A stretch of 63,759 bases of DNA, the filler included, from an uncultured Acidimicrobiia bacterium (GTDB lineage Bacteria; Actinomycetota; Acidimicrobiia; Spongiisociales; JAOTWH01): assembly GCA_964347285.1 (NCBI GenBank). It is 4 parts of 4 records of this genome, joined end to end, with 100 filler letters (N's around TTAATTAATTAA, not from the genome) between each part and the next. Parts side by side here need not be neighbours in the genome. Positions count along the whole stretch, not along the records: positions 34,803 to 51,978 come from CAYFYE010000055.1; 3 more parts are not named here. One strand, written 5' to 3'. Positions within the stretch are counted from its first letter, which is position 1; every line of letters begins with the position of its first letter. The notes beneath the pieces were generated by a model that saw only the letters and a program-made list of their open reading frames with translations, was not told the origin of the DNA and searched no databases. Shown here piece after piece: positions 28,987-62,052 of this stretch. Both the position numbers and the translations under genes were made by a program.

Positions 28987-29508
28987 ATGGCCGGACTGAT
29001 GCCCCATCCCACGGGACGCCGCCCCAAAGCCCATATCGCAGGGGACCGAGCCCTGGACGAAAAGGATCTGCAAATCATCGCGGCGCTCCAGATCGACGGG
29101 CGTACCAATTTCGCAGAGTTGGCATCGCGCATCGACCTCAGCCAATCGGCCATCCGCCTCAGGGTGAAGCGGCTCCTGGAGTCCGGTGTCGTCCAGATCG
29201 TGGCGATCACCGATCCGCTCTCGATCGGGTTCACAGTGCAGGCCATGATCGGCCTTACCGTCGACGGCGATGTCGAGGCGATCAGCGACGAGATCGCGAC
29301 CCGGGAGTACGCCGTCTACGTGGTCTTGACGGCAGGTCGCTTCGATTTGCTCGTCGAGGTGCTGTGCGCCGACAACGATCACCTGCTCGAAGTGATGAGT
29401 GACCTGCGAGCCCTCGAAGGGGTGTCATCGGTCGAGGCCCACACCTACCTGAGATTGACGAAGCAGACGTACGCATGGGGAATCCCTCCCGCCACAGCGA
29501 CCGTGTGA
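28987..29508 (+). CDS. Lrp/AsnC-family transcriptional regulator
   Basis: LDEKDLQII..LQIDGR HTH, AGRFDLLVEV; divergent from the amine operon. Confidence 0.9.
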   Translation: MAGLMPHPTGRRPKAHIAGDRALDEKDLQIIAALQIDGRTNFAELASRIDLSQSAIRLRVKRLLESGVVQIVAITDPLSIGFTVQAMIGLTVDGDVEAISDEIATREYAVYVVLTAGRFDLLVEVLCADNDHLLEVMSDLRALEGVSSVEAHTYLRLTKQTYAWGIPPATATV

Positions 29509-29694
29509 CGGTCGACCCCACCCCGGCATCCGTGGTCGGACCTGCTGATGACAGTCGAAACCGGAGGATGGCGGACATCGAAGGTGCCGGCCTGTCCGGA
29601 GCCACTCCGGTGGCATCGGGCCGTACCGAACCAACCGCCTCTCCGGCGCCAGGCTGATGGCGTCGACACGTCGGCGCCAAAGGCGGCTCGGCGC

Positions 29695-32202
29695 ATGAAC
29701 GATCAGACGGACCGCCCCGTGCCAGCCGCTCGATCGGAGCCGTCCGGGCGCGGTGGCCTCCCCGATCGGGCACGGGTGGTGATCATTGGAGGCGGGGTGA
29801 TCGGCGCCAGCGTCGCCTACCACCTGGCCAGGCTCGGCTGGAACGACGTCGTTCTCCTCGAGCGCGACAAGCTCACCTCGGGCACGACCTGGCACGCCGC
29901 CGGCCTCATTGTTTCGGGCGGCATGACGACTCAGACCCTTGCCTGGATGGCCAAGTACTCGCGCGACCTCTATGAGGTCCTCGAGGAAGAGACCGGCCTC
30001 TCCACCGGCTTTCGCCCCGTCGGGTATCTGCAGACGGCGAGCACCGAAGAGCGGACCCACAAGCTGCGTCGGGAGGCCGACTTCCTGCGCCTCATGGGAA
30101 TCGAGCGCGAGGAGATCTCACCCGCCGAAGTCGCCGATCTGTGGCCGCAGATCGACACGAAAGCCGTTGCCGCGGGGTTCTTCACCGCCAACGAGGGACG
30201 GGCCGATCCGGCGAACGTTGCGATGTCTCTGGCCAAAGGGGCCAGGATGGGAGGGGTTCGCGTTTTCGAGGACTCGCCGGTGACCGCAATCACCCATCGA
30301 GACGGTCGGGTCACCGGGGTGGTAACGGGCCGGGGATCCATCGAGGCCGAATACGTCGTCAACTGCGCCGGGATGTGGGCCAAGGAGGTCGGGGCGATGG
30401 CCGGCGTCGCGGTGCCGTTGCAAGCGATCGAACACGCCTATCTGATCAGCGAGCCGTTCGAGGGCGTCTCTCCCGATCTGCCGATCTTCGAGGACCCCGA
30501 CCGTTTCGCCTACTACCGGGAAGAGACCGGTGGGCTCATGGTCGGCTTGTTCGAGCCCGTCTCCGCCCCGTGGTCTCTGGACGGGATCCCGGACGACTTC
30601 AGCTTCGGTGAGATCCCTTCCAACTGGGATCGGCTGGCGCCGTTCCTCGAGCGTGCCATGGACATCCTCCCCGTGCTCGAGCGCGTCGGCGTGCGCAAGC
30701 TGTTCACGGGTCCTGAGAGCTTCACCCCCGACAACGGCTTCATCGTCGGCGAAGCCCCCGAGCTCACCAACTTCTTCATCGCTGCTGGATTCAACTCGTT
30801 GGGAATTCTCACCGGTGGGGGCGCCGGCTCCATCATCGCCAGCTGGATCGTCGACGGCGTGACTCCGATGGACGTCACCGACTTGGACCCCGCCCGGCTT
30901 CACCCCTTCCAGACCAACCGCTCCTACCTGGCGGAACGGGGCGTCGAGTTGCTCGGGCGGCTCCACTCCACCGGATCGTGGCCGCACTCCCATCCAACCA
31001 CGGCACGCGACGTGCGGCGCTCTCCCGTGCACGAGCGAATGGCCTCAGCCGGCGCCCACTTCAGCGAAGCTGCCGGGTGGGAACTCACGGCCTGGTTCGC
31101 CCCGGCGGGAGCCTACATCGAGCCCCGTCTCACCTATGGGCGACAAGACTGGTTCGATTATCACGCGGCCGAACACCACGCAGTCCGCACCGGGGTCGCT
31201 CTCTTCGACATGTCGGCGATGTCCAAGTTCCTCGTGCAGGGGCCCGACGCCGAGCGAATCTTGAACCGGCTCTCCGGCAACAACATCGCCGTCCCCGCCG
31301 GGCAGTGCGTGTACACCCAATGGATGAACCGCGCCGGGGGAGTGGAAGCCGACCTGACGGTTACTCGCATTGCCGAGCACCGATTCCTCGTGGTCGTTGC
31401 CGAACTGTTCCATCGACGCGTCGAAGCCATGCTGCACAGGGCAAGCGCGGACAACAGGGGCGTCTCCATCACCGACGTGACGTCGGGGTACGGACTGCTC
31501 AGCGTGCAGGGACCCCGCTCGAGAGACCTCCTGAGCCGGGTCACCACTGCGGACCTGAGCAACCAGTCCTTCCCCTACTTCACCGCCCAGGAGATCGACC
31601 TGCACCATGGTGTGGGCATGGCGTTTCGGCTCAGCTTCGTCGGCGAGCTCGGGTGGGAGCTCTACATCCCGACCGAGTTCACGCTCGGGGTTTATGACGA
31701 GATCGTCGAGGCAGGCACGGAATTCGGCCTGGCCCATGCGGGTATGGAGACCCTCGAGAGCACTCGCACCGAAGCCGGAAGACGAGACTACGGCCTCGAC
31801 ATGGAGAACTCCGACTCCCCGCTCGAAGCGGGCCTGGGGTTTGCCGTGGACTTCGACAAGCCGGATGGGTTCATCGGACGAGACGCTCTCTTGAAACAGA
31901 GGGAGAACCGGCCCCTGAAGTCGCGGCTCGTGCAGTTCCTGCTCGAGGATCCCGAGCCTCTGCTCTACGGCGAAGAGCCGATCTTCCACGACGGCAAGCC
32001 CGTTGGGTACCTGCGCTCCGGCGCCTACGGCCACACGCTCGGTGGAGCCATGGGCTTCGGGTACGTGGGAAATCCTGCGGGAGTGACTGCCGAATTCGTG
32101 AAGGGCGGAGGTTTCGAGATCCAGGTCGCCGGCGAGCAGATCGGGGCGCGCGCTTCGTTGCGACCGATGTACGACCCCGAAAACCTCCGGGTGAGAATGT
32201 GA
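29695..32202 (+). CDS. GcvT-domain FAD oxidoreductase (dimethylglycine/sarcosine dehydrogenase family)
   Basis: GGGVIG, GTTWHAAG, GPESFTPD, ELGWELY, C-terminal GcvT domain. Confidence 0.9.
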   Translation: MNDQTDRPVPAARSEPSGRGGLPDRARVVIIGGGVIGASVAYHLARLGWNDVVLLERDKLTSGTTWHAAGLIVSGGMTTQTLAWMAKYSRDLYEVLEEETGLSTGFRPVGYLQTASTEERTHKLRREADFLRLMGIEREEISPAEVADLWPQIDTKAVAAGFFTANEGRADPANVAMSLAKGARMGGVRVFEDSPVTAITHRDGRVTGVVTGRGSIEAEYVVNCAGMWAKEVGAMAGVAVPLQAIEHAYLISEPFEGVSPDLPIFEDPDRFAYYREETGGLMVGLFEPVSAPWSLDGIPDDFSFGEIPSNWDRLAPFLERAMDILPVLERVGVRKLFTGPESFTPDNGFIVGEAPELTNFFIAAGFNSLGILTGGGAGSIIASWIVDGVTPMDVTDLDPARLHPFQTNRSYLAERGVELLGRLHSTGSWPHSHPTTARDVRRSPVHERMASAGAHFSEAAGWELTAWFAPAGAYIEPRLTYGRQDWFDYHAAEHHAVRTGVALFDMSAMSKFLVQGPDAERILNRLSGNNIAVPAGQCVYTQWMNRAGGVEADLTVTRIAEHRFLVVVAELFHRRVEAMLHRASADNRGVSITDVTSGYGLLSVQGPRSRDLLSRVTTADLSNQSFPYFTAQEIDLHHGVGMAFRLSFVGELGWELYIPTEFTLGVYDEIVEAGTEFGLAHAGMETLESTRTEAGRRDYGLDMENSDSPLEAGLGFAVDFDKPDGFIGRDALLKQRENRPLKSRLVQFLLEDPEPLLYGEEPIFHDGKPVGYLRSGAYGHTLGGAMGFGYVGNPAGVTAEFVKGGGFEIQVAGEQIGARASLRPMYDPENLRVRM

Positions 32203-41985: not shown

Positions 41986-43188
41986 TCACACCCGTCGAGC
42001 TTCCGCCGGCAGGGAGAAACCAACCCGACCTCCCGGGCCGGGTTCGATCCAAATCTCCCCTCCGTGAGCCTCGACGAGCCCTTTGGCGATGGCCAGTCCG
42101 AGACCGGCGCCACCCCCTCCGACGCCTCTGCTGCGTGCCGGCTCGAAACGCGCAAAGGGCTCGAAGGCACGCGGCTCGAACCCGGAAGGAAACCCGGGAC
42201 CCTCATCCTCCACGAGTACTGTGGCCGAGCCCCTCCCGTTGACGACATCGATGCGGATGCGCGACGCTTCTGGAGCGAAGCGGATGGCGTTGTCCAGCAG
42301 ATTGCGAATAACCCGCCGCAACTGGGCGGCGCCACCCTCCACCATGACCCGGTCTTCCGACCGGAGTTCCAGCTGAACGCCACGGCGCAGAGCGAGCGGG
42401 GTCATAGCTTCGACGGCCTCGTCGGCCAGCTCGGTCAGGTCGATCGGGACGAGTTCTAGGTCCACTCGCTCCGCCTCGATGCTGGCGAGCAGGAACAGGT
42501 CATCAACCAGGCTCGACATCAGCTCCACGTCGGCGGCTATTGCCGCCAGGTACCGGTCCGGCTCGCCCACCACCCCGTCCTGGAGTGCCTCGACGGCCGC
42601 CTGCATTGCCGTCAGCGGAGTCCGCAGGTCGTGGCCTACTGCCGCCAAGAACGAGTTCCGGGCCTCCTCTTCTTGCCGCCGCCGCCGGCTGGCCTCCTCG
42701 AGCCGAATCACCATGGCGTCGAAAGCGGCCGCCACCGCCCCCACCTCATCACGCCGATCCACACCGGTTCGGACCGCCAGGTCGCCCGTGCCGACACGAG
42801 CTGCGGCCCGACCCAGCTGTTTCATGTCATCGGCCAGGGGGGCTGCAGCCCACATGGCCAGTACCAACGCCAGCGCCGCGCCCAGTCCGGAGGCGACGAG
42901 GACCAGCCTCAAATCGTGGCTGGAGATGAACATGAAGCCCGCTGAGATCGCCACGGCCGAGGCCACCACCGCAACCGACACCATGGCCACGGCCAGCACC
43001 AGGTAGCGAAAAGAGGCAAAGCCGGCCCGGCGGCGACGGATGGCAATGCCGACGGCGAGCCCGGCCCCGGCCACTGCCCCGAAGATGGCCAGGATGGCCA
43101 GACGATCCTCCCCAGACGGCTGCATGACCATTTCCAGGACGGCCAGTCCCAGGACCAACATCCCGACAACGGCGGTGACCAGCCTCAC
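41986..43188 (-). CDS. HAMP sensor histidine kinase
   Basis: TMs, HAMP, HDLRTP, NLLDNA, DEGPG, GAGLGLAI. Confidence 0.92.
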   Translation of the reverse strand: MRLVTAVVGMLVLGLAVLEMVMQPSGEDRLAILAIFGAVAGAGLAVGIAIRRRRAGFASFRYLVLAVAMVSVAVVASAVAISAGFMFISSHDLRLVLVASGLGAALALVLAMWAAAPLADDMKQLGRAAARVGTGDLAVRTGVDRRDEVGAVAAAFDAMVIRLEEASRRRRQEEEARNSFLAAVGHDLRTPLTAMQAAVEALQDGVVGEPDRYLAAIAADVELMSSLVDDLFLLASIEAERVDLELVPIDLTELADEAVEAMTPLALRRGVQLELRSEDRVMVEGGAAQLRRVIRNLLDNAIRFAPEASRIRIDVVNGRGSATVLVEDEGPGFPSGFEPRAFEPFARFEPARSRGVGGGGAGLGLAIAKGLVEAHGGEIWIEPGPGGRVGFSLPAEARRV

Positions 43189-43901
43189 TGCTCGAACCGA
43201 TACCCGACTCCCCACACGGTGGTGAGTCGCTTCGGCTCAGAGGGGTCGTCCTCGATCTTGTTGCGGAGCCGGCCAATGTGCACCGTGACCGTGGCCGGAT
43301 CTTGCCACTCGGTCGAGGAATCCCATACTTGCTGGAGCAGCTGACCGCGACTGAAGACCTGACCCGGCGAGGACGCCATGAACCACAGCAGCTCGAACTC
43401 CCGCCGGGTGAGCTCCACCGAACGGCCCTCTACTTCAACCCGCCTTTGTCGGGGATCGATGGTCAGCTCGCCGAACTCCAGCCGCCCGGCGTCGGGCGCG
43501 GGAAGGCCGGAACGGCGTAGCACGGTCTTGACCCTGGCGGCCAACTCTCGGGGAGAGAAGGGCTTGAGCACGTAGTCGTCGGCGCCCAGCTCGAGGCCGA
43601 GAACACGATCGGCTTCCTCGGTCCGGGCCGTCAACAAGATCACCGGAACGTCCCCGAGCTTGCGGATCTCGGCCAAGACGTCGAGTCCATCGACGATGGG
43701 CAGCATGACGTCGAGAACGACCAGATCGGCCCCGTGCCTTCGGACGTAGTCGATGGCGGACCGTCCGTCCTCCAAGACTTCCACACGGAATCCGGCGTGG
43801 GTCAGGTAGGTGGCCACGACCTCTCGCACCATCGGCTCGTCGTCGACGACCACCACCCGACGGGGCCGCTCCGAGCCGGCGCCGATCCTCGCGTCAGACA
43901 T
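43185..43901 (-). CDS. OmpR-family response regulator
   Basis: VVDDE, LDVMLP, KPFSPREL, winged HTH, TVWGVGYRF. Confidence 0.93.
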   Translation of the reverse strand: MSDARIGAGSERPRRVVVVDDEPMVREVVATYLTHAGFRVEVLEDGRSAIDYVRRHGADLVVLDVMLPIVDGLDVLAEIRKLGDVPVILLTARTEEADRVLGLELGADDYVLKPFSPRELAARVKTVLRRSGLPAPDAGRLEFGELTIDPRQRRVEVEGRSVELTRREFELLWFMASSPGQVFSRGQLLQQVWDSSTEWQDPATVTVHIGRLRNKIEDDPSEPKRLTTVWGVGYRFEQ

Positions 43902-44034
43902 GTGTCTCATCGTATGTATCCATGCCGGAAAACGACCCAAGACGCCCGAGAGTTTCGGCTTTGTTCATCACCCCGTTCGATGCCGTTGAGGTCGACGGGC
44001 CACCGTGTGAGGCCTGAACCCGAGAGAAAGGAGA

Positions 44035-44802
44035 ATGTCCATGCTCGGGCACACGAAACGGCTGATCTTTGGGCTGGTGATTGCCCTGTTCGGAGCGCTC
44101 GCCATCCCGGCCGTGTCGGCCGACGGCGGAAGGGACGCGGTGTTCACTTACGAGGTCACCATCGAGAACCTGACCTCGTCCCAACCGCTGTCGCCTCCCA
44201 TCGCCTACACCCACGACAAGGGGTTCGGCCTGTTCGACGTGGGTCAAGCGGCTTCGGCGGCCATTGCCGCAATAGCCGAAGACGGCAACCAGTCGGTGGC
44301 GAGAGCGGCACTGGAGGGAACTCGAGACGTCGGGTTCGGCATTGTGACCGATGTCGTCGACGTCGGGGTTCCGCTCACACCGCAGGGAACCACCGTGGGC
44401 TCCTTCACCGATTCCGCCAGCTTCACCATCGAGGCTCGTCGTCAAGATCGGCTGTCGCTCGCCACGATGCTCATCTGCACCAACGACGGCTTCACCGGGG
44501 CCGGCGGTGTCGAGCTCACCAACCAGCCGGGCGGATCGTCGGTCCACTACTTGATGGCCTACGACGCCGGCACCGAGGACAACACGGAGTTGAGCGCCGA
44601 CATCGTCGACCCGTGCAGCGCCCTCGGACCGCTGACACTGGCCGGTGACCCCAACGGGAACGAAAACATGGACCCCGACACCGATCCACCGGCTGCCATC
44701 CAGCTTCATCCGGGCGTGGTCGGCACGGCAGGTGGTCTGGCGGCGGCCCACGACTGGGGCGGTGCCGCCGTCGCCAAGGTGACGATCAGGCGGCTGGGAT
44801 AA
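44035..44802 (+). CDS. Secreted Spondin_N-domain protein
   Basis: Signal peptide; YEVTIENLT..QPLSP...H, AEDG, TMLICTNDGF, YDAGTE.N.E, HPG. Confidence 0.8.
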   Translation: MSMLGHTKRLIFGLVIALFGALAIPAVSADGGRDAVFTYEVTIENLTSSQPLSPPIAYTHDKGFGLFDVGQAASAAIAAIAEDGNQSVARAALEGTRDVGFGIVTDVVDVGVPLTPQGTTVGSFTDSASFTIEARRQDRLSLATMLICTNDGFTGAGGVELTNQPGGSSVHYLMAYDAGTEDNTELSADIVDPCSALGPLTLAGDPNGNENMDPDTDPPAAIQLHPGVVGTAGGLAAAHDWGGAAVAKVTIRRLG

Positions 44803-44820: not shown

Positions 44821-44846
44821 TGAGCCCCTTCCTCGGGAGGGGCTCA
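44821..44846. terminator. Hairpin between the convergent spondin and nfo genes
   Basis: TGAGCCCCTTCC-TC-GGGAGGGGCTCA inverted repeat. Confidence 0.55.
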
Positions 44847-45608
44847 GCCCAGTCGCTCGCGCAACCAGGCGATGTCGCCGGCCTGGCCTTCGGCGTCGTC
44901 GGGAGTTTCCACCACCACCGGCGCCTGGGCCGCTCGGACGACTCCCACCAGCAGCTTTTCGGGTATCAGGCCGGTCCCGAGATTGGTATGACGGTCCCGT
45001 CGGCTGTTGAGAGGATCGCGTGAGTCGTTGCAGTGGACCAGATCGACCCGACCGGTAGCCGCCAACAGCCGTTCCACCACCGTTACCAAGTCCTCCCCGG
45101 CCGCCCAGGCGTGGCAGGTGTCGAGGCATGTACCGACCCCCAAGTCCCCGATCTCCTCCCACAATGGCCCATAGGCGTCGATCTCGCGGGCGATGGCGTT
45201 GCCTCCCCCGGCGGTGTTCTCGATGAGGATGGGGATGTCGGTCTCCAGCGCATCGAGCGCCTTGCGCCATCGCTCCCCGGCCACCTCGGGCCCTTCATCG
45301 TCACCAATGTGGCCGCCGTGCACGACGACGGCGGCGGCCCCGATGGCGTCGGCTGCGGTCACCGTGTCGGCGAGAATCTTCCGGCTGGGAATTCGGACCC
45401 GGTTGTTGGGGGAGCCGACGTTCACCAGGTAGGGGGCATGGACGTACAGAGGAAGGTCGGAGGCGACCAGCTCCCGGGTGTCGTCCCGGGGCAAGGGCGC
45501 CTTCCAGGATTGGGGATTGGAGAGGAAGAACTGCACCAGGTCGGCCCGACGATCCTCGGCTTCCTTGAGGGGGTGCGCATTGGGCACATGGGCGCCGACT
45601 GGAATCAC
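44844..45608 (-). CDS. nfo: Endonuclease IV
   Basis: IPVGAH, NPQSW, HAPYLVN, HGGH, ENTAG, DTCH, HCNDS, DRH, ETP. Confidence 0.9.
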
Positions 45609-46177
45609 CGCTCCTCCATATCGGGACGGTCTGCGTAGCGGGATCGCTCCAGCATCTTCTGAAGCAGGTCGGCGACCTCCGGGAGTGCCGGGCTCCAGTC
45701 TCCGGCATCGATCAGTAGTAGATCGCCCTCCCAACGCGCCCCCCGAGGGTCGGTGAGGCCCAATGCCGGATGAGCCAACTCCAGAGCGAGGGCTCGTGAC
45801 TGACCGGTCTCATCCTCGTCGAGAGTGGAGCGGACGGCGAGCACTTCGTTCCACCCAATGCGCCACGGCCGCCCCCCAATTCCAGGAGCCGCGAGGAGGA
45901 TGCCCTCGCCGTCGGCGGCCAGCACTGGGCGCCGGCGTAGGTCGCTCGCCCCCCACAACACCAGTCCTGCTCCGGCCACGGCGAGCCCTACTCCCCAGGT
46001 GATATCGGCCCGACGCTCGCTCCGCCCCTGGTTGGTACGACGGCCCTCGTCGTCCACTTCGGGCTCGGGAAAGACCACGTACCCGAACAACAGATCCACC
46101 GCCGCCACCAGAGCCACCAAGCCCGCCGCCAGCGTGAAGACCGGGCGTCGCATCGACCGGCGCACCTGGAGGTTCAC
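45605..46177 (-). CDS. Hypothetical membrane protein (two TMs plus a PH-like C-terminus)
   Basis: Two hydrophobic helices; GTGA overlap with nfo; start uncertain. Confidence 0.6.
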
Positions 46178-46220
46178 CCCAGCGTCCCTGCTTCGGGTGC
46201 CGGAAGGTCAGAAAAAGCGC

Positions 46221-46249
46221 TCAAGATTCGGGGGCTCAACGGCCGAACC
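46221..46249 (+). promoter_or_regulatory. Putative sigma-28/WhiG-type promoter, unit 1
   Basis: TCAA-N17-GCCGAACC preceded by an A-tract. Confidence 0.5.
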
Positions 46250-46253
46250 ATAA

Positions 46254-46318
46254 CGGTGTAAAACTTCCTTCCATCGCTTGCCCGTACGGAGGGGCCGCCC
46301 GGTGGGGCGGCCCCTCGC
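46254..46318 (+). ncRNA. Candidate small RNA 1 (CU-loop hairpin + GCCCGUAC + terminator hairpin)
   Basis: Stem CGGTG/CATCG with loop TAAAACTTCCTTC; GCCCGTAC; GAGGGGCCGCCC-GGTG-GGGCGGCCCCTC. Confidence 0.55.
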
Positions 46319-46371
46319 TCGCGAGCCCCGACTGCGCCCGAAATAAAGCGCGAAAAAAACTCGAAAACATC

Positions 46372-46399
46372 TAAAGGTTCTCGAGGTTGTGACCGATAG
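46372..46399 (+). promoter_or_regulatory. Putative sigma-28/WhiG-type promoter, unit 2
   Basis: TAAAG-N15-ACCGATAG (TAAA-N16) with upstream A-tracts. Confidence 0.6.
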
Positions 46400-46406
46400 A
46401 CACCGC

Positions 46407-46475
46407 AGACGGATTCCTTCCTCCCGTCTTCGCCCGTACCGAAGGGCCGCCCAGTGGGCGGCCCCTCGGTCTTTC
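46407..46475 (+). ncRNA. Candidate small RNA 2 (paralog of RNA 1)
   Basis: Stem AGACGG/CCGTCT with loop ATTCCTTCCTC; GCCCGTAC; CCGAAGGGCCGCCC-AGT-GGGCGGCCCCTCGG then TCTTT. Confidence 0.6.
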
Positions 46476-46498
46476 TGGGCTTGGTACTCTCGCAGCAG

Positions 46499-47182
46499 GT
46501 GGAGATCTGCTTCGTCCGTCACGCTGAGCCCGCCTGGAGCGTCGCCGGGGTCAACCAACACGATCCGTTCTTGACTCCACGCGGTCACCGCCAGGCCCAG
46601 CTGCTGGCCGATCGCCTGGCCTCGGAGCCGGCCTTCACCGAGCTCGTCGTCTCTACCTCACAACGCACTCGCCAGACGGCCGAGCCGGTCGCCGACGCGC
46701 TCGATCTCGAGCCCCGCTTCCTGGACGATTTGGTGGAGTTCCGCATGCCCGATCTTCAAGGCAGTCCGGCCGAAACGGTCGAAAAGATCTTCCGCGAGGC
46801 GTACCGGAGACCGCCGGAAGAATGGTGGGACGGGCTGCCGGGCGGTGAGAGCTTCCGGCAGTTCCACGATCGGGTCAGCGCCACGGTCTTGAGCATTCTC
46901 GACGGACACGGCATCGAACGCGACGAACACACTCCCACCCACCTGTGGCGGATGGGGTCTCCCGAGGAGCGCCTGGTGATCGTGGGTCATGGAGGCACCA
47001 ACGCGGTGGCCCTTGGCTTCCTCCTCGGGGTGGAGCCCACTCCGTGGGAGTGGGAGCGCTTCGTCCTCGGCCACGCTGCGATAGCCCGCCTGGTGAGCGT
47101 GCCCCTCGCCGGCGAGCACATCCTTTCGATGCGCTCCTTCAACGACCAGGAACACTTGCCGGCCAACTTGAGGACCAGGTGA
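46499..47182 (+). CDS. Histidine phosphatase family protein
   Basis: FVRHAE, RTRQTA, GGESF, VGHGGT, FND.EHL. Confidence 0.85.
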   Translation: MEICFVRHAEPAWSVAGVNQHDPFLTPRGHRQAQLLADRLASEPAFTELVVSTSQRTRQTAEPVADALDLEPRFLDDLVEFRMPDLQGSPAETVEKIFREAYRRPPEEWWDGLPGGESFRQFHDRVSATVLSILDGHGIERDEHTPTHLWRMGSPEERLVIVGHGGTNAVALGFLLGVEPTPWEWERFVLGHAAIARLVSVPLAGEHILSMRSFNDQEHLPANLRTR

Positions 47183-47557: not shown

Positions 47558-49763
47558 TTAGCCGAGCCCGAACTCCCCCGCCACCGGCAAGAACGAAGGT
47601 TCCCCGAACACAAACTGGCTGTCGGCGACGCCCTGGGTCGGCGTGTGGCGGAAGTAGAAAGTGGCATCCGAAGGCCGGAATGCCGCCGGGGTGTCCACAC
47701 CGTCCACCACTCCCCAGTCCCCGGCCACAAAGCGATCGTTGGGGTTTCCAAAGAAGATCTCGCGATCGGCAATCCCGGTGGTGAGCGTTTCGCGCCAATA
47801 GAAGAACCCGGTCGCCTCTCGGTGCAGGCCGACCTCGTCGATCCCGTCCCCATCCCAGTCGCCCACTACCGGCTTGTCCCCGGGGTTGCCGAACAGGAAC
47901 GAGAAGTCGACCGTTCCCAGGCCTGCGAAGCTGCTGCCCAGCGTCTCGATGATGTAGAAGCGCTGCTCGGAAGGCCGATACAAGCTGAGGGTATCGCACC
48001 CATCCCCGTTCCAGTCTCCGGCCAACGGAATGTCGCCGGGGTTGCCGAAGAAGAACCTGATGTCGGCAGTGCCTTGGGTGTTGGAGTTCCTCAGGTAGGC
48101 GAAGGCCTCCGACCGGCGAAACAAGCCCGGAGTGTCGACTCCGTCGCAATCCCAGTCCCCCATGAAGGGGATGTCGCCGGGGTTGCCGTAGAAGAAGGAG
48201 GTCACTGCTCCGACGGAATTCCGCAGGTGCCACCGGCCGGTGAGCGGGTCTTGGAGGCCCACGGTCTCGACACCGGAGACCAGGACCGGCAGATAGCGCT
48301 GCCCGAAGATCTCGAACTCGCCGTCAACGACGTCGTCCCCCTCCCATGCAACCAGGTACTGATTGTCCACCGGATTGTTCGCTACCGCCGGGTCGAAGGC
48401 GCTGAATGCGACGCTGCCCTCGAGCCCCATGCTGGAGATCCGAATATCCACGCCGATCTGGGTGCCGTTGGAAGCCCTCAGTCGCTGGCCGTAGATCTCA
48501 AATTCACCGTTGACCGCGTCGTCCCCCCACCACACGACGAGGTACTCGCCGGCCACCGGGTTGTGGGCCACCGCCGGGCTGAAAGCATCGAATGCCGCCG
48601 AAGTCTCGACGCCCATGTCGGACAGGCGAACGTCGTTGGGACCTACCTCGACCCCGGCGGCATCGACCCGCTGCCCGTAGATCTCGTTCTCTCCGTTGAC
48701 GACGTCGTCGCCGGCCCACACCACCAGGTACTCGCCGCTGGCGACGTTGGATGCCACCGCCGGATTGACGGCGCCGAACTTGCTGTCGCCCTCCGGGCCC
48801 ATGTCGGAGAGGCGGAAATCGTTGGGACCTACCTCGGCCCCGGCGGCATCGACCCGCTGGCTGTAGATCTCGTTCTCCCCATTGACGACTTCGACGGCCT
48901 CCCACACCACCAGGTACTCGAGGGCCACCGGGTTGTGAGTCACCGCCGGCGAGCGGGCGTTGCCTGCCGGGCCCATGTCGGAGATAGGGACGTCGTTGGT
49001 CCCAACCTCGGCCCCGGTGGCATCGATCCGTTGGCCGTAAATCTCGCTCTCCCCGTCAATGACGTCGTCGCCCTCCCAGACCACCAAGTACTCGTTGGCC
49101 GCCGGGTTGTAGGCCACCGCCGGCGAATGGGCGTCGAAATCGCCATTGCCTTCCGGGCCCATGTCGGAGAGGCGGAAATCGCTGCCGATCTCGCTGCCGT
49201 CGGCGGCGTCGACCCGCTGGCCGTAGATCTCGTTCTCCCCATCAATCACGTCGTCGCCCCACCACACCACCAAGTACTCGTTGGCCGCCGGGTTGTAGGC
49301 CACCTCAGGCGAATGGGCATCGAAATCGATGTTGCCTTCCGGTCCCATGTCGGAGAGGCGGAAATCGCTGCCGATCTCGCTGCCGTCGGCGGCGTCGANN
49401 NNNNNNNNNNNNNNNNNNNNNNNNNNNNNNNNNNNNNNNNNNNNNNNNNNNNNNNNNNNNNNNNNNNNNNNNNNNNNNNNNNNNNNNNNNNNNNNNNNCC
49501 CGCTGGCCGTAGATCTCGCGCTCGTCCAGCACGTCGTCGCCCTCCCACACCACCAGGTACTCGTCGGCCGCCGGGTTGTAGGCGACCGCCGGATTGAAGG
49601 CGCCGAAGTCCGGGGCGCCGTCGGGACCCATTTGGGAGAGGCGCACGGTGTTGGGGCCCGCTGCCTCGAGTGGTTCGACCGGCAAGAGCATCGGACCCGA
49701 AGCCAGGACGATGACTGCGGCCGCCAGCACGGATGCCGAGAGCCGGACGGAGTTGCCGATCAT
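47558..49763 (-). CDS. Secreted protein with ~62-aa tandem repeats and C-terminal FG-GAP-like domain (interrupted by a scaffold gap)
   Basis: Signal peptide, repeats PAVAYNP..NEYLVVW.GDD..DGE.EIYGQR, C-terminal GDWDCDGVDT repeats. Confidence 0.8.
48300..49640 (-). repeat. Intragenic ~186-bp tandem repeat array
   Basis: Near-identical DNA units (e.g. CATGTCGGAGAGGCGGAAATCGCTGCCGATCTCG near 49160 and 49346); the gap lies inside the array. Confidence 0.85.
49399..49498. other. Scaffold gap (100 N)
   Basis: N-run inside the repeat array. Confidence 0.95.
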
Positions 49764-49946
49764 CGATGCCCCGCCATCAGACAAATCGGAGCCGGACGAT
49801 AGCGCCCGATTCCGCCGCAGCCCCAGCCGTCACCAAGTTTTGCGTCGTTCCTACCAGGATCTTCACACTGCAACTTCGACCCGATTCCACTACTCAGAGT
49901 AGTCCACCCTGGCAACTTCGCCCCGCACACACGACCACGGATGATC

Positions 49947-49976
49947 GAGCGCCCCGGGTGGTGACCCGGGGCGCTC
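49947..49976 (-). terminator. GC hairpin downstream of the PD40 protein gene
   Basis: GAGCGCCCCGGGT-GGTG-ACCCGGGGCGCTC. Confidence 0.65.
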
Positions 49977-49995
49977 TCCCAAGTCTGGCCATTCC

Positions 49996-51681
49996 CTACA
50001 GCCCGAACCTGCCCGACACCGGCCGCCAATCGCTACCGGCTCCGATCCACACGAACTGGCTATCGGCCACTCCCTGGGTGAGGTCGTGTTTGAAGAAGAA
50101 GGTCACATTGGAGGGCCGAAACACCGCCGGAGAGTCGCGGCGGTCCACAACTCCCCAGTCCCCCGCCACAAAGCGGTCGCCCGGATCTCCAAAGAAGAAC
50201 TCGGCTGAGGCGATCCCTGTGTCGAGCGTGTTGCGGTAGTAGAAGAACCCGGTCGACTCCCGATGGAGGCCCACCTCCGTCATCCCGTCTCCGTCCCAGT
50301 CACCCGCCACCGCCTTGTCCCCGGGGTTGCCGAAGTCGAAGAAGAAGTCGGCGGCGCCCAGCCCGCCTTCGTTCTCGCCCAGCCTGTTGATGATGTAGAA
50401 GCGCTGCTGCGACGGTCGGTAGATACTCAGGGTGTCGCAGCCGTCCCCATTGAAGTCCCCCACGATCGGCACGTCGTCAGGATTTCCGAAGAAGAAGCGT
50501 ATGTCGGCGATGCCCTGGCTATTGGAGTTCCTCAGATAGGCGAAGGCATCGGACTGCCGGAACAGGCCGGGAGTGTCCACACCGTCGCAGTCCCAGTCCC
50601 CCATGAAAGCGATGTCGGCTGGGTTGCCGTAGAAGAAGTTGGTCACCGCTGCGGTGTCGGCATCGCGTAGGTACCAGATGCCGGTAGCCGGGTCGACCAG
50701 ACCTACGTCGTGACCGATGGGGGAAACGTTGATCGTCACCGTGGCCGGCGCCGAAGTCGCTCCGTGCTCGTCTGTCAGCGTATACGTGAAGGTGTCGACG
50801 GAGGGCGTGCTCCCATCGTGGGAGTAGACAAACCGGGTGGGATGGACACCATCGCGGGCGACAGTACCGTGAACCGGATCGGTCGCCTTGTCAGCGGTAA
50901 GGCCATCACCGTCGGGGTCAGAGTCGTTGGCGGCAAGGTCGATCGTTGCCGATCCTCCGGTGGGCACGGTGACCATGTCATCCACTGCGATTGGGGGACG
51001 GTTCAACGGTTGCCACGTCGGCTCGAACTCGTCGATGCCGGTGGTGTTGGTCACGTTGACCCCGCCGCTTCCATCGGCGTTGACCACGTAGATGTCGTCG
51101 GTGCCGGTGAGGGGAAACGTGGGGTTGTTTCGGTAGGCGATCTTGGTCCCGTCCGGCGACCAGGCCGGCTCATGGTGGGTGGAGGCCACAATGAGCCCGG
51201 TGTTGGTCAGCGCAGCCTGGCCGGTGCCGTCGGCGTTCATCGTCCAGATGGAATTGCCCCTCCGGTAGGCGATCTTGGTCCCGTCCGGCGACCAGGTCGG
51301 CTCGAACTCGTCGATGCCGGCGGTGTTGGTCACGTTGACCCCGCCGCTTCCATCGGCGTTGACCACGACGATGTCGTCGTTCGCAAAGAAGGAGTCGTAG
51401 CGGTAGGCGATCTTGGTCCCGTCCGGCGACCAGGCCGGCTCATGGTGGGTGGAGACCACGATCGGCCCGGTGTTGGTCAGCGCAGCCTGGCCGGTGCCGT
51501 CGGCGTTCATCGTCCAGATGGAACTGCCCCTCTGGTAAGCGATCTTGCCGTTGGCGCCGGGAACTGTTCCGGACGCAGGTGAATCGGCGATGGCGACCAG
51601 AACGGTCAGCAGCAACACGAAGACCGACACGAGGCCGGTGATAGCTCGCGCCCGGCCGGCCGAACTCGCATGTGGGGACAT
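49996..51681 (-). CDS. Secreted protein with PD40/TolB-like repeats, an Ig/cadherin-like domain and C-terminal FG-GAP-like domain
   Basis: EP.WSPDGTKIAY repeats; NRPPIAVDD..NDSDPDGD..DTFTYT; C-terminal GDWD.DG repeats. Confidence 0.85.
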   Translation of the reverse strand: MSPHASSAGRARAITGLVSVFVLLLTVLVAIADSPASGTVPGANGKIAYQRGSSIWTMNADGTGQAALTNTGPIVVSTHHEPAWSPDGTKIAYRYDSFFANDDIVVVNADGSGGVNVTNTAGIDEFEPTWSPDGTKIAYRRGNSIWTMNADGTGQAALTNTGLIVASTHHEPAWSPDGTKIAYRNNPTFPLTGTDDIYVVNADGSGGVNVTNTTGIDEFEPTWQPLNRPPIAVDDMVTVPTGGSATIDLAANDSDPDGDGLTADKATDPVHGTVARDGVHPTRFVYSHDGSTPSVDTFTYTLTDEHGATSAPATVTINVSPIGHDVGLVDPATGIWYLRDADTAAVTNFFYGNPADIAFMGDWDCDGVDTPGLFRQSDAFAYLRNSNSQGIADIRFFFGNPDDVPIVGDFNGDGCDTLSIYRPSQQRFYIINRLGENEGGLGAADFFFDFGNPGDKAVAGDWDGDGMTEVGLHRESTGFFYYRNTLDTGIASAEFFFGDPGDRFVAGDWGVVDRRDSPAVFRPSNVTFFFKHDLTQGVADSQFVWIGAGSDWRPVSGRFGL

Positions 51682-51823
51682 GACTTCTCTCCTCCCCGCC
51701 CGTGTGCGCAACCTTCCGGATGCGCCGCGGGACTCTCGTCTACTCCCAAACACTACGCCCACGCCAATAACCGTGTCTGAACGAATCGGAGTACGGCAGA
51801 CAAGGGTCAACCGGCCGGCTGCT

Positions 51824-51978
51824 CTACTTCCCGAACCGCCGCTGCCGCCGCGAGAAATCGCGCAGGGCCCGCAGGAAGTCGACCCGCCGGAAGGCCGGCC
51901 AGTACACGTCGATGAAGCTGTACTCGGCGTAGGCCGACTGCCACAGGAGGAACCCCGACAGCCGACTCTCACCGCTGG
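51824..51978 (-). CDS. cis-isoprenyl diphosphate synthase C-terminus (partial)
   Basis: [50 protein letters not shown]. Confidence 0.85.
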
Positions 51979-60324: not shown

Positions 60325-60352
60325 TCAGCGGGCCAAGGGGCTCGGCCGATAC
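60325..60352 (+). promoter_or_regulatory. Putative sigma-28/WhiG-type promoter of the M23-rsiG operon
   Basis: TCAG-N16-GCCGATAC in a short intergenic region. Confidence 0.6.
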
Positions 60353-60360
60353 TCGAGCAC

Positions 60361-61503
60361 GTGGCTTTTCGATCCAACCCCGGTGGGTTAGCCTTGGGCT
60401 CACGCATGGTTCCCCGCCGCTCCTGGCGCGTTGCCGTACCCCTAGTACTTCTTTCCGTAGTTGTGAGTGCCCAGGGCGTCTACGCGCAGACCCAAGAGAA
60501 GGTCGACGAGACCCGAAGAGTCCTCGAGGACGCCAAGAACGAACGAGCCTTCGTCCTGAGCGAACTCGATTCGGCCGTCACCGAATACCAGACGGTCAAT
60601 GCTGAGCTGGCCGACCTGACGTTCAAGGTCACCCAGCTCTACGACCGTATCGAGTCCTACGAGGCGAGTGCCCGCGACCTGCGGGGTCGCGCCGACGAGC
60701 GCGCCCTCGAAGCGTATATGGCCGGCGGCACCCAACTGTGGGATCTCTTCTTCGAAGCCGAGACGTTCGGTGAGTTGATCACCAGCCAACAGGTGATGGA
60801 GCGGGCCACCACCGCAGACACCGAGCTCGCCGACCAGCTGGCGGCCACTCAGCGCGAGATGGAGCGACTGCGAGAGATCCTGGCCGAGGATCAGCAGCGG
60901 GTCCGAGAGCTGAACGATCAGCTCCAGGGCCTGGTGGGCCAACTGGATGTGCTGTACGAACAAGCCAACATCGATGTCCTGGAGGCCGACGAGGCGTATC
61001 GCCAGGCGGTTCGAGAGTTGGAGCTGGAACGGCAGCGCCAGCGACTGGCCGAGCTGGCCCGGCTGCAAGGAGCGGCTGCCGGCATTTCCTCCGCGCTCGT
61101 CCCCGGCTTCATATGCCCAGTCCAGGGCGGGGCGAGCTTCATCAACGACTGGGGCTTTCCCCGCTCAGGAGGCCGGCGCCATAAGGGCAACGACATGTTC
61201 GCTCCTCGGGGAACGCCGCTGTTGGCGGTCGCCGACGGCACCGTGCGATTGTCGAGCAGCCACCTCGGTGGCATCGGGATCTGGCTGGTCGCCGACTACG
61301 GCGTGCACTTCTACTACGCCCATCTCGACGGGTACGCGGCCGGTTTGGCGAGCGGAGCACGGGTAGCCAGGGGGCAGGTGATCGGATACAACGGCGATTC
61401 GGGCAATGCCCGTGGGGGAGCGCCTCACCTCCACTTCGAGATCCACCCCGGGGGCGGGGCGGCGGTGAACCCGTATCCGACGAACGCCGCCGCCTGCGGC
61501 TAA
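60361..61503 (+). CDS. Coiled-coil M23 peptidoglycan endopeptidase
   Basis: Signal/TM, long coiled coil, HKGND, YAHL, HLHFE; start at 60361 or 60406. Confidence 0.88.
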   Translation: MAFRSNPGGLALGSRMVPRRSWRVAVPLVLLSVVVSAQGVYAQTQEKVDETRRVLEDAKNERAFVLSELDSAVTEYQTVNAELADLTFKVTQLYDRIESYEASARDLRGRADERALEAYMAGGTQLWDLFFEAETFGELITSQQVMERATTADTELADQLAATQREMERLREILAEDQQRVRELNDQLQGLVGQLDVLYEQANIDVLEADEAYRQAVRELELERQRQRLAELARLQGAAAGISSALVPGFICPVQGGASFINDWGFPRSGGRRHKGNDMFAPRGTPLLAVADGTVRLSSSHLGGIGIWLVADYGVHFYYAHLDGYAAGLASGARVARGQVIGYNGDSGNARGGAPHLHFEIHPGGGAAVNPYPTNAAACG

Positions 61504-61512
61504 AAAGGGGCT

Positions 61513-62052
61513 ATGAGCCGGGAGTTCCAGCGCCGCATCGACCAGGTCAAGGACGCGGCCTTCCTCGAGGGGCTGGAATCCATGCCGTTGGAGGAGGTCC
61601 GCGCCAAGCGGAGCATGTGCGATGCTCTCGACACCGAGTACGCCTACTACCGGCGTCTCGTCCATGGGCGGATGGATCTTCTCGCCTTCGAACTACGGCG
61701 GCGGCGCGGCGAAGAGAGTCGGACTCTCATCGAGGCACTCCCGGCGATCCTCGCCGGGCCCCACGGCGAACGTAAGCCGGGCGGACGCCCGATTCAGCTC
61801 GACCTTCCCGATCTCCCCGACGTGGGACGACGCGAACTCGATCGGGTCCTCCACGACGATTTCTTGACCCGCATCGCCGATTTCTCGGACGAGGAGCTCG
61901 AGGACATTCAGCGCCAGCTCACCGAGGCCGAGGCCGAGATCTCGGAGAACCGTCGCATGGTGTATGAGGCCTTCGAGCATCTCCAGGCCGAACTGACCCG
62001 GCGCTATCGGGAGGGCCTCGCCGACGCCAGCGAGTTGATCAGTCCTGGCTGA
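61513..62052 (+). CDS. rsiG: Anti-sigma factor RsiG (AmfC) homolog
   Basis: RRIDQV...FL.GL..M.L.EVRAKR; two helices bearing degenerate E-x3-S-x2-R-x3-Q-x3-D motifs; L.AILA; EL.RRYREG.A. Confidence 0.85.
   Translation: MSREFQRRIDQVKDAAFLEGLESMPLEEVRAKRSMCDALDTEYAYYRRLVHGRMDLLAFELRRRRGEESRTLIEALPAILAGPHGERKPGGRPIQLDLPDLPDVGRRELDRVLHDDFLTRIADFSDEELEDIQRQLTEAEAEISENRRMVYEAFEHLQAELTRRYREGLADASELISPG

Follow-up and report, generated by a model that had tools for sequence, protein, structure and literature searches.

Small RNAs (sRNAs) driven by sigma-28 have been described for the flagellar systems of Escherichia coli and Campylobacter (PMC10578931, PMC4626219). In E. coli, the sigma-28-dependent RNAs UhpU, MotR, FliX and FlgO tune motility; these flagellar RNAs derive from untranslated regions and have been studied together with Hfq (PMC10578931). 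In Campylobacter, CJnc170/FlmR is a FliA-dependent sRNA (PMC11187230), and CjNC1 and CjNC4 are short, stand-alone, paralogous RNAs placed behind a sigma-28 promoter; they are reported to be Hfq-independent, carry a conserved single-stranded region and a 3' stem-loop, are predicted to cover ribosome-binding sites (RBS), and share a clear target 5' UTR (PMC4626219). Other sRNAs display an anti-Shine-Dalgarno (anti-SD) motif, as do the cuckoo/CcsR RNAs, reported in Alphaproteobacteria only, which include two to four hairpins, each with CCUCCUCCC, and show the motif in the hairpin loop, variable compensating stems and tandem copies (PMC4615179). In actinobacteria, the C-rich loops of 6C RNA base-pair with multiple mRNAs and need no chaperone (PMC6486639), and expression of scr1906 of Streptomyces coelicolor is lost in a whiG mutant; for the latter, the authors did not find a WhiG-like promoter and proposed that the effect is indirect (PMC2602773). 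Studies of the WhiG-RsiG regulons link WhiG, a sigma factor of the sigma-28 family controlled by RsiG, to type IV pili, chemotaxis and c-di-GMP genes (PMC8325347; bioRxiv 10.64898/2026.01.14.699351). As described there, promoters were sought within 200 bp of start codons and protein genes were listed; the terms "small RNA" and "sRNA" do not occur in the main texts of these two studies. In the literature searched, we found no description of an actinobacterial sRNA with a direct WhiG promoter.

The locus described here resembles these systems in different respects. As in CjNC1/CjNC4, two short stand-alone paralogous units lie behind a sigma-28-type promoter, combine a conserved single-stranded region with a 3' stem-loop, and are predicted to cover RBS. 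In contrast to that flagellar system of another phylum, the predicted regulon here concerns type IV pili and chemosensory proteins, a conserved target was not found, and an extra covarying 5' hairpin is present; the two were compared by their description (PMC4626219) and through Rfam, which gave no match. The sigma-28 family is likewise involved in the case of UhpU, MotR, FliX and FlgO, whereas our units are intergenic, have their own promoters and come from a genome in which Hfq was not found. The anti-SD motif in a hairpin loop, the variable compensating stems and the tandem arrangement recall cuckoo/CcsR; however, each unit has a single loop hairpin (CCUUCC/CCUCCC), a second hairpin without such a loop, a GCCC linker and a WhiG-type promoter, and the promoter-bearing homologs, among the matches listed, come from Acidimicrobiia or Actinomycetota records, outside the taxonomic range of cuckoo. 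The 6C RNA provides a mechanistic precedent; Rfam searches gave no 6C match at E ≤ 10 or E ≤ 1. 6C RNA has two C-run loops, and we know of no link between this RNA and a sigma-28 promoter. The nearest published case, likened by its description, is scr1906, and here, unlike there, a consensus WhiG promoter is conserved.

From sequence comparison we obtained a promoter, two covarying stems, a kept loop and linker, synteny, the co-distribution with WhiG and RsiG and the lack of a conserved open reading frame, and from these we infer transcription, WhiG dependence, termination, base-pairing, repression and targets. Both units are very probably real RNA genes driven by WhiG. The conserved promoter, the anti-SD tract and the stand-alone organisation suggest that the RNA pairs with RBS, as for CjNC1/CjNC4, cuckoo and 6C RNA, a mode of action that we favour with less assurance. 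The reading that we prefer, to which we assign a probability of about 0.6, is a WhiG-driven trans-acting anti-SD sRNA analogous to CjNC1/CjNC4, which by this analogy would work like the known sigma-28 sRNAs. Under this reading, RNA polymerase with WhiG would transcribe each unit into an RNA of approximately 70 nt, whose first hairpin would display a CU-rich anti-SD sequence and whose 3' hairpin would end and protect the molecule. The RNA would pair with the RBS of several mRNAs with no need of Hfq, and would lower their translation while the WhiG programme (type IV pilus/chemosensory) is on. Unit 2 would be the inherited member of the family, and unit 1 a tandem duplicate with an altered loop, directed to a partly different set of mRNAs. 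The family would then be an order-wide candidate for post-transcriptional control within the WhiG-RsiG switch of type IV-piliated bacteria, and it offers a search recipe for culturable WhiG-bearing actinobacteria: a WhiG promoter, a CU-rich tract and a hairpin with no open reading frame.

The tandem locus and its surroundings

The window, that is, the whole stretch of DNA analysed (63,759 nucleotides), includes four contigs of one genome (G000; 2.63 Mb, 90% complete), and both units with their flanking genes sit within one of them, C55. As read from the sequence, a gap of 321 bp (46178-46498) holds two units of the same layout, 151 bp apart, in agreement with the first-pass annotation, which had noticed a pair of similar units about 150 bp apart in a gap of about 320 bp. 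In each, a WhiG-type promoter is followed by a hairpin with a CU-rich loop, a GCCCG linker and a GC-rich 3' hairpin. The predicted WhiG/sigma-28 promoter of unit 1 (46212..46248, + strand) comprises an A-tract (46212-46216), the -35 element TCAAG (46221-46225), a 16-nt spacer and the -10 element GCCGAAC (46242-46248). The predicted sRNA (46253..46320, +; approximately 68 nt, with putative ends) starts with a hairpin that pairs CGGTG at 46254 with CATCG at 46272 and has CUUCCUUC in its loop (46264-46271), followed by the GCCCG linker (46280-46284) and the GC hairpin (46289-46316), all on the + strand. In unit 2, the predicted WhiG/sigma-28 promoter (46354..46399, +) includes A-tracts, the -35 element TAAAG (46372-46376), a 15-nt spacer and the -10 element ACCGATAG (46392-46399). 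The predicted sRNA of this unit, the family-typical copy (46404..46476, +; approximately 70 nt, also with putative ends), forms on the + strand a first hairpin from AGACGG at 46407 and CCGTCT at 46424 around an 11-nt loop with CCUUCCUC; its core CCUCCCGUCUUCGCCCG (46420-46436, +) includes the GCCCG linker at 46432, and its 3' hairpin (46438-46470, +) has a short U-rich tail, CTTTCT.

Taken together, loop, linker and hairpin form a pattern seen twice in the window and in none of 100 shuffles. Each of its two halves is present twice in the 2.63-Mb genome, and the combined pattern is found in this genome only at this locus, so that with two copies it does not behave as a high-copy REP-like repeat. 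Two metagenome contigs (L507 and L509; a third match, L508, is unrelated) carry the tandem pair without a single difference, which speaks against an assembly artefact, although the samples may not be independent.

Upstream of the units lies a divergent gene of unknown function (45605..46177, - strand), for which Pfam and NCBIfam searches gave no match, and after it nfo, encoding endonuclease IV (44844-45734). Downstream, a gene of the histidine-phosphatase family (46499..47182, +; PF00300, E=4e-33) probably starts at 46499, as judged from the starts of its homologs. Farther along the window, the interval 47558-51972 encodes two large, predicted secreted proteins that contain internal repeats and have a C-terminal repeat region in common; one of them has PD40 and Ig-like domains and the other has no Pfam match. 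On the other side (41986-44802), genes for a sensor kinase and a response regulator are divergent from a Spondin_N-domain gene, with myo-inositol-1-phosphate synthase upstream.

Distribution and fold of the RNA family

Of the 8 genomes of its family, 7 carry an exact copy of the 17-nt unit 2 core, and the genome without it is 70% complete. Among the matches listed, variants of this core recur through the order and in Acidimicrobiia or Actinomycetota records, and 95 of the 135 distinct core matches carry the promoter T(C/A/T)(A/C)AG-N14-17-xxCGA within 80 nt upstream; the same pattern is present in 120 of 20000 random windows (0.6%). This frequency, together with the consensus matches at the locus itself, sustains the proposal that each unit has its own WhiG/sigma-28-type promoter. 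The 95 promoter-bearing matches are followed by a strong hairpin (mean -25.7 kcal/mol) and the other 40 average -12.5; the latter are mostly chance matches that fall in other taxa or in coding sequence, and one is a genuine member that escaped the regular expression. A covariance model built without the promoter (R1) matched 46 of 61 relatives at E≤0.05, and when R1 matches were inspected the promoter was present in 18 of 24, including all 17 with E<1e-4. Core matches and promoter-free R1 matches thus both indicate that homologs retain promoter, loop and linker. No match was obtained with R1 in 104 genomes from other orders of the class. Unit 1 scored E=1.3e-7 with R1 and E=7.4e-11 with R2, but it is part of both training alignments.

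Within the order, R2 matched 57 of 101 genomes and R3 matched 76 of 141, mostly with one copy; close kin are counted here and are not independent. By family, R3 matched 23/25 genomes in f2, 14/15 in f7, 6/6 in f11, 9/14 in f12, 12/24 in f9, 4/24 in f4 and 0/24 in f10; a few matches, with E close to 1e-3, are weak or incomplete, and divergent members are possible in f4, f8 and f10. The copy number is two in G000 and one or two per genome elsewhere, which qualifies the earlier description of a tandem pair: the pair is real, but it represents a local duplication in a family whose members are mostly single-copy. The alignments and tallies include one unpublished genome (G022), and no claim depends on it alone. 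A phylum match in G464 and a weak match in G014 were rejected as members given that they do not have the architecture.

Upstream of the RNA there is in most cases a divergent pyrE (57 loci), and after it homologs of the 45605-46177 gene and nfo; in most relatives pyrE intervenes between the RNA and the homolog of the 45605-46177 gene, and this homolog is placed beside the RNA in L454, L164 and L196. Downstream genes vary: a phosphatase gene is the commonest (34 loci), and many others are unrelated or lie on the opposite strand. This variation in identity and orientation argues for a trans-acting RNA, as had been proposed. It also bears on a different explanation, in which the unit would be a cis element, either a WhiG-driven 5' leader or attenuator of the phosphatase gene or a terminator combined with a protein-binding DNA site. 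The 34 loci with a phosphatase gene and the short U tails described below, which would allow read-through, are in its favour; nonetheless, the many loci with unrelated or opposite-strand genes downstream, the promoter and 3' hairpin that each tandem copy has of its own, and the covariation of the first stem, which implies an RNA fold, make this explanation improbable.

Regarding the fold, z-scores against shuffles on the + strand were -3.2/-2.9 for unit 1 and -4.5/-5.6 for unit 2. The minus strand also folds well, therefore folding does not give the strand; the promoters point along the + strand. The 3' stem covaries, with two-sided changes at 7 of 9 pairs, a value reached in none of 500 shuffles and higher than in all slid controls. 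Annotation as a terminator had been proposed for this hairpin: the hairpin is present and covaries, but a terminator scan of the + strand found no canonical U run after the 3' hairpins of the window, and the homologs have on average 2.9 T within 8 nt after the 3' stem (95 loci), so that its role in termination is presumptive. In Streptomyces, poly-U tails are reported not to be the rule for terminators (PMC2602773).

The sequence of the first stem differs by family and yet it pairs (AGACGG/CCGUCU, UAACACG/CGUGUUA, GAGAC/GUCUC, GGCAC/GUGCU), and in 29 of 39 cases it pairs better with its own 3' strand than with swapped strands, which extends to the family the observation that the stems of both units pair despite having different sequences. 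This stem is weak in about a quarter of cases and in the f7, f11 and f3 types, and RNAalifold recovered only the 3' stem from an automatic alignment. In unit 1 the first hairpin has two alternative folds, CGGUG/CAUCG or an ACGG-GUAA pairing into the linker, and CUUCCUUC is unpaired in both. First-stem pairing accounts for most of the change seen midway along the core; two motifs, CCUCC(C) and GCCC, are then left as conserved. In the first-pass annotation the loop was described as shared and the linker as invariant; at the level of the family they are kept in the form of these two motifs, whereas TTCCTTCC and GCCCGTAC are local. In predicted folds, CCUCC is exposed in both units of the window and in the f6 and f12 types, and in several families it is partly paired with a 5' GAGG/GGAGG. 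The CU-rich seed characteristic of anti-SD sRNAs is conserved among full-length homologs, by a partly circular census given below, and is exposed in the former types and partly paired in others.

No conserved reading frame was found in the 95 loci, and a Shine-Dalgarno (SD) sequence plus start is present in only 7/95 on the + strand and 6/95 on the minus strand. A small open reading frame was discarded for this reason, and the view of the units as paralogous non-coding + strand genes of 65-70 nt stands. Nor does the family correspond to a described one: with Rfam 15, the window and 14 homolog loci gave best scores of 11-21.5 bits against thresholds of 35-80, and no description was found in the freely accessible main texts searched, although motif catalogues other than Rfam could hold it. 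This is probably a real and undescribed sRNA family, ready for an Rfam model.

WhiG, RsiG and the predicted regulon

G000 encodes one WhiG (G000:C25), above the cut-off for NF004935 and TIGR02479. The anti-sigma factor of WhiG is encoded on another contig of the window by rsiG (61513..62052, +; PF22802, two stretches, E=1.6e-16), which is regulatory context outside the RNA locus. Among 61 relatives, WhiG is present in 55 and RsiG in 53. The f10 family, the only one without WhiG and RsiG (0/5 each), is also without the RNA (0/24), and this joint loss counts as one event. In other families that have WhiG, many genomes gave no RNA match, namely 20 of 24 in f4, half of f9 and nearly all of those tested in f8. 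Presence of both regulators and their co-distribution with the RNA bear out the link to WhiG that had been suggested; an upstream promoter and a cognate sigma factor, as in the sigma-28-dependent sRNAs, are thus found here.

The published WhiG consensus is T(A/C)AA or CTCA, N16-17, GCCGA, and the promoters seen here share the consensus of the WhiG-RsiG regulon studies (PMC8325347; bioRxiv 10.64898/2026.01.14.699351). With a weight matrix made from 68 homolog promoters, G000 excluded, the unit 2 promoter is the second-best site genome-wide in G000 (score 25.5); the unit 1 promoter fits the published consensus but falls under the listed matrix scores. At a score of 16, the matrix finds 21 intergenic sites in G000 versus 5 in resampled DNA. 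Further sites lie ahead of three pilin genes (two major, one minor), pilT, genes for a CheA-like protein and a response regulator, and an M23-rsiG pair; the pilin labels were confirmed by a separate check, and the pilT, CheA-like and receiver labels are those of best matches in the f2 genome G048. In G048, a stricter regular expression gave eight intergenic sites, among them those of the RNA and pilT. Flagellin, CsrA and Hfq were sought in G000 (90% complete) and not found. The predicted regulon is similar to that of Rubrobacter, whose WhiG is reported as pilus-linked (PMC8325347), and agrees with the survey preprint on WhiG (bioRxiv 10.64898/2026.01.14.699351).

Several features of these genes were observed in passing. 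At 60325-62052 of the window (G000:C80), an M23-peptidase gene lies directly upstream of rsiG behind a WhiG-type promoter (score 21.6), and in most of 22 relatives the gene that precedes rsiG likewise ends in NPYP-x, which suggests that WhiG may transcribe its own anti-sigma factor. By eye, both c-di-GMP signatures of RsiG look degenerate versus the published E-x3-S-x2-R-x3-Q-x3-D. A type IVa pilus cluster at G000:C4:9258-18810 and 29139-31601 includes pilins, two ATPases, pilM-like genes and three WhiG-type promoters; G048 has no matches to most of these genes and keeps the RNA and a pilT with a WhiG promoter. For free-living members of UBA5794, which is presumably the order concerned here, type IVa and Tad pili have been reported (PMC12008989).

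Predicted targets and alternative readings

Targets were ranked in two whole genomes, G000 and G048, from our own gene calls and starts and with a simplified accessibility/energy model; unit 1 was scanned with a lighter method than unit 2 and the energies are not strictly comparable. The best duplexes cover the SD window in 39 of 50 (G000) and 34 of 50 (G048) cases, which is expected for any anti-SD sequence, and units 1 and 2 have 10 of their top 50 predictions in common under different settings. None of 1046 G000/G048 orthologue pairs was within the top 1% of both genomes. Perfect complements of the linker plus SD did not recur across 10 genomes, recurring loop complements in 41 f2 genomes were limited to the RNA's own gene plus one or two isolated sites, seeds shared by orthologues gave nothing above chance worth naming, and complements in coding regions were not in excess. 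The repressive arm of a WhiG regulon proposed in the first-pass annotation is conjectural; among the predicted WhiG-promoter genes none scored as a target, and the leaders of the pilin, pilT, cheA-like and whiG genes had poor ranks (that of whiG in G000 is void, its start being mis-called). Given that no conserved target was found, a multi-target repressor with a short seed is the best reading.

Individual candidates were also considered. In G000, 11 nt of the flp leader (G000:C61), next to the SD, are exactly complementary to unit 2, and this leader ranks 4 of 2315. Elsewhere, with the flp genes taken from the best-scoring locus of each genome, only 2 of 25 sRNA-flp pairs (23 genomes) placed flp among the top 10%, and in G048 it ranked 361 of 1892; the Flp/Tad pilin was hence rejected as a family-wide target and is still possible for G000 alone. 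The top-ranked gene of G048 (L430:4379-5640, -) encodes a predicted secreted protein of 414 aa with no G000 homolog, and a 14-nt perfect complement of the G048 RNA loop covers its SD; this match does not recur in 40 other f2 genomes. As a feedback target, rsiG was discarded because its start region matches both motifs in G000 and in none of the other 21 genomes. An enrichment of lipoprotein genes among the predicted targets (8/50 per unit versus 31/518 GGAGG genes, p=0.015) was not convincingly replicated in G048 (3/50 versus 65/1892). As a separate observation, the flp genes that head the Tad locus (G000:C61:10147-10341; L245, L247, L249, L256, L260) show a hairpin in the leader immediately ahead of the SD, and its arms, compared by eye, differ between genomes yet pair; many flp genes of the order (L242-L271) show the inverted repeat (A)TGGGTC-N4-GACC(C/T)AT 40-90 nt upstream, which is likely a regulator-binding site.

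Pairing with the SD leaves the invariance of the GCCC linker unexplained. The main rival of the anti-SD reading starts from this point: a WhiG-driven RNA could act as a protein decoy or scaffold, whose single-stranded (UA)GCCC linker and CCUCC loop would bind an RNA-binding protein. A core of about 17 nt that hardly varies among ten families, and for which no conserved complement in mRNAs was found, fits such a function, as do f7 members with GUUAGCC twice in one RNA. Divergent copies and distant relatives point in the other direction. At least 6 of 118 distinct loci, some with short flanks, carry two promoter-hairpin units, the second no more than 330 nt away; it is upstream in G000 and downstream in five f2-type loci (L151, L164, L196, L213, L230); the second copies of f2 type have loops such as AACUCCUUCUC and no GCCC. 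A looser form, with promoter, 5' hairpin, CU-rich tract and 3' hairpin and also without GCCC, is found in G069 (L532), G062 (L533) and G488 (L530), the last from another class of the phylum. In second copies and distant relatives alike the loop is altered and GCCC dropped, while CCUCC, CUCCU or CCUUCC is kept. Moreover, duplicates diverge in the loop, and a candidate protein was not identified, CsrA and Hfq being among those not found. We consequently regard this explanation as unlikely.

The anti-SD tract is present in 28 of 28 full-length rows, a census that is partly circular because the model and the screen favour CU tracts; compared at this level, promoter and anti-SD tract appear to be what all forms share. 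Unit 1 is like unit 2 in its linker and 3' stem, therefore the duplication at this locus is probably separate from the others and local. Recurrent tandem duplication with a change of loop would represent a natural case of sRNA seed evolution. In G124 (f2), a short contig (L113; G124:C130) carries a second copy of f11 type, possibly by contamination of the bin.

A wider proposal, which we consider speculative and rather doubtful, is a phylum-wide RNA arm of WhiG, in which RNAs that mimic the 16S tail would damp translation initiation when c-di-GMP falls and the programme of pilus motility begins, and (UA)GCCC would dock a putative actinobacterial RNA chaperone that replaces Hfq; the RNA of G488 and the 16S-tail copy of G035 would be the edges of the family. 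The latter, a syntenic copy (L014:1500-1572, -) missed by all three models, carries GGAUCACCUCC, 11 nt identical to a stretch of G048 that we take to be the 3' tail of 16S rRNA. The same copy, together with the ACCUCC present in 8 of 29 aligned rows and the absence of specific conserved targets from our searches, could be accounted for by a mimic of the 16S tail that broadly damps translation initiation, or sequesters an anti-SD-binding factor, with no defined list of targets. Against it, the exact tail occurs in one genome among approximately 25 loop variants, for which we estimate a chance of a few percent; most members have CCUCCC, and the sRNA would have to be very abundant to compete with ribosomes. 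We hold this mimicry to be as improbable as the cis element discussed above. Finally, the alternative offered in the first-pass annotation, a minus-strand RNA that would expose GGA loops for CsrA, is consistent with the good folding of that strand and with ACAGGAUG, presumably similar to a CsrA site, in many + strand members, but it can be practically dismissed, as it can as a decoy of CsrB/RsmZ type, since CsrA was found in 0 of 6 genomes (G000 and five others), the conserved promoter faces the + strand with no sigma-70-type promoter found in the region, and the 5' arm of several families has no GGA.
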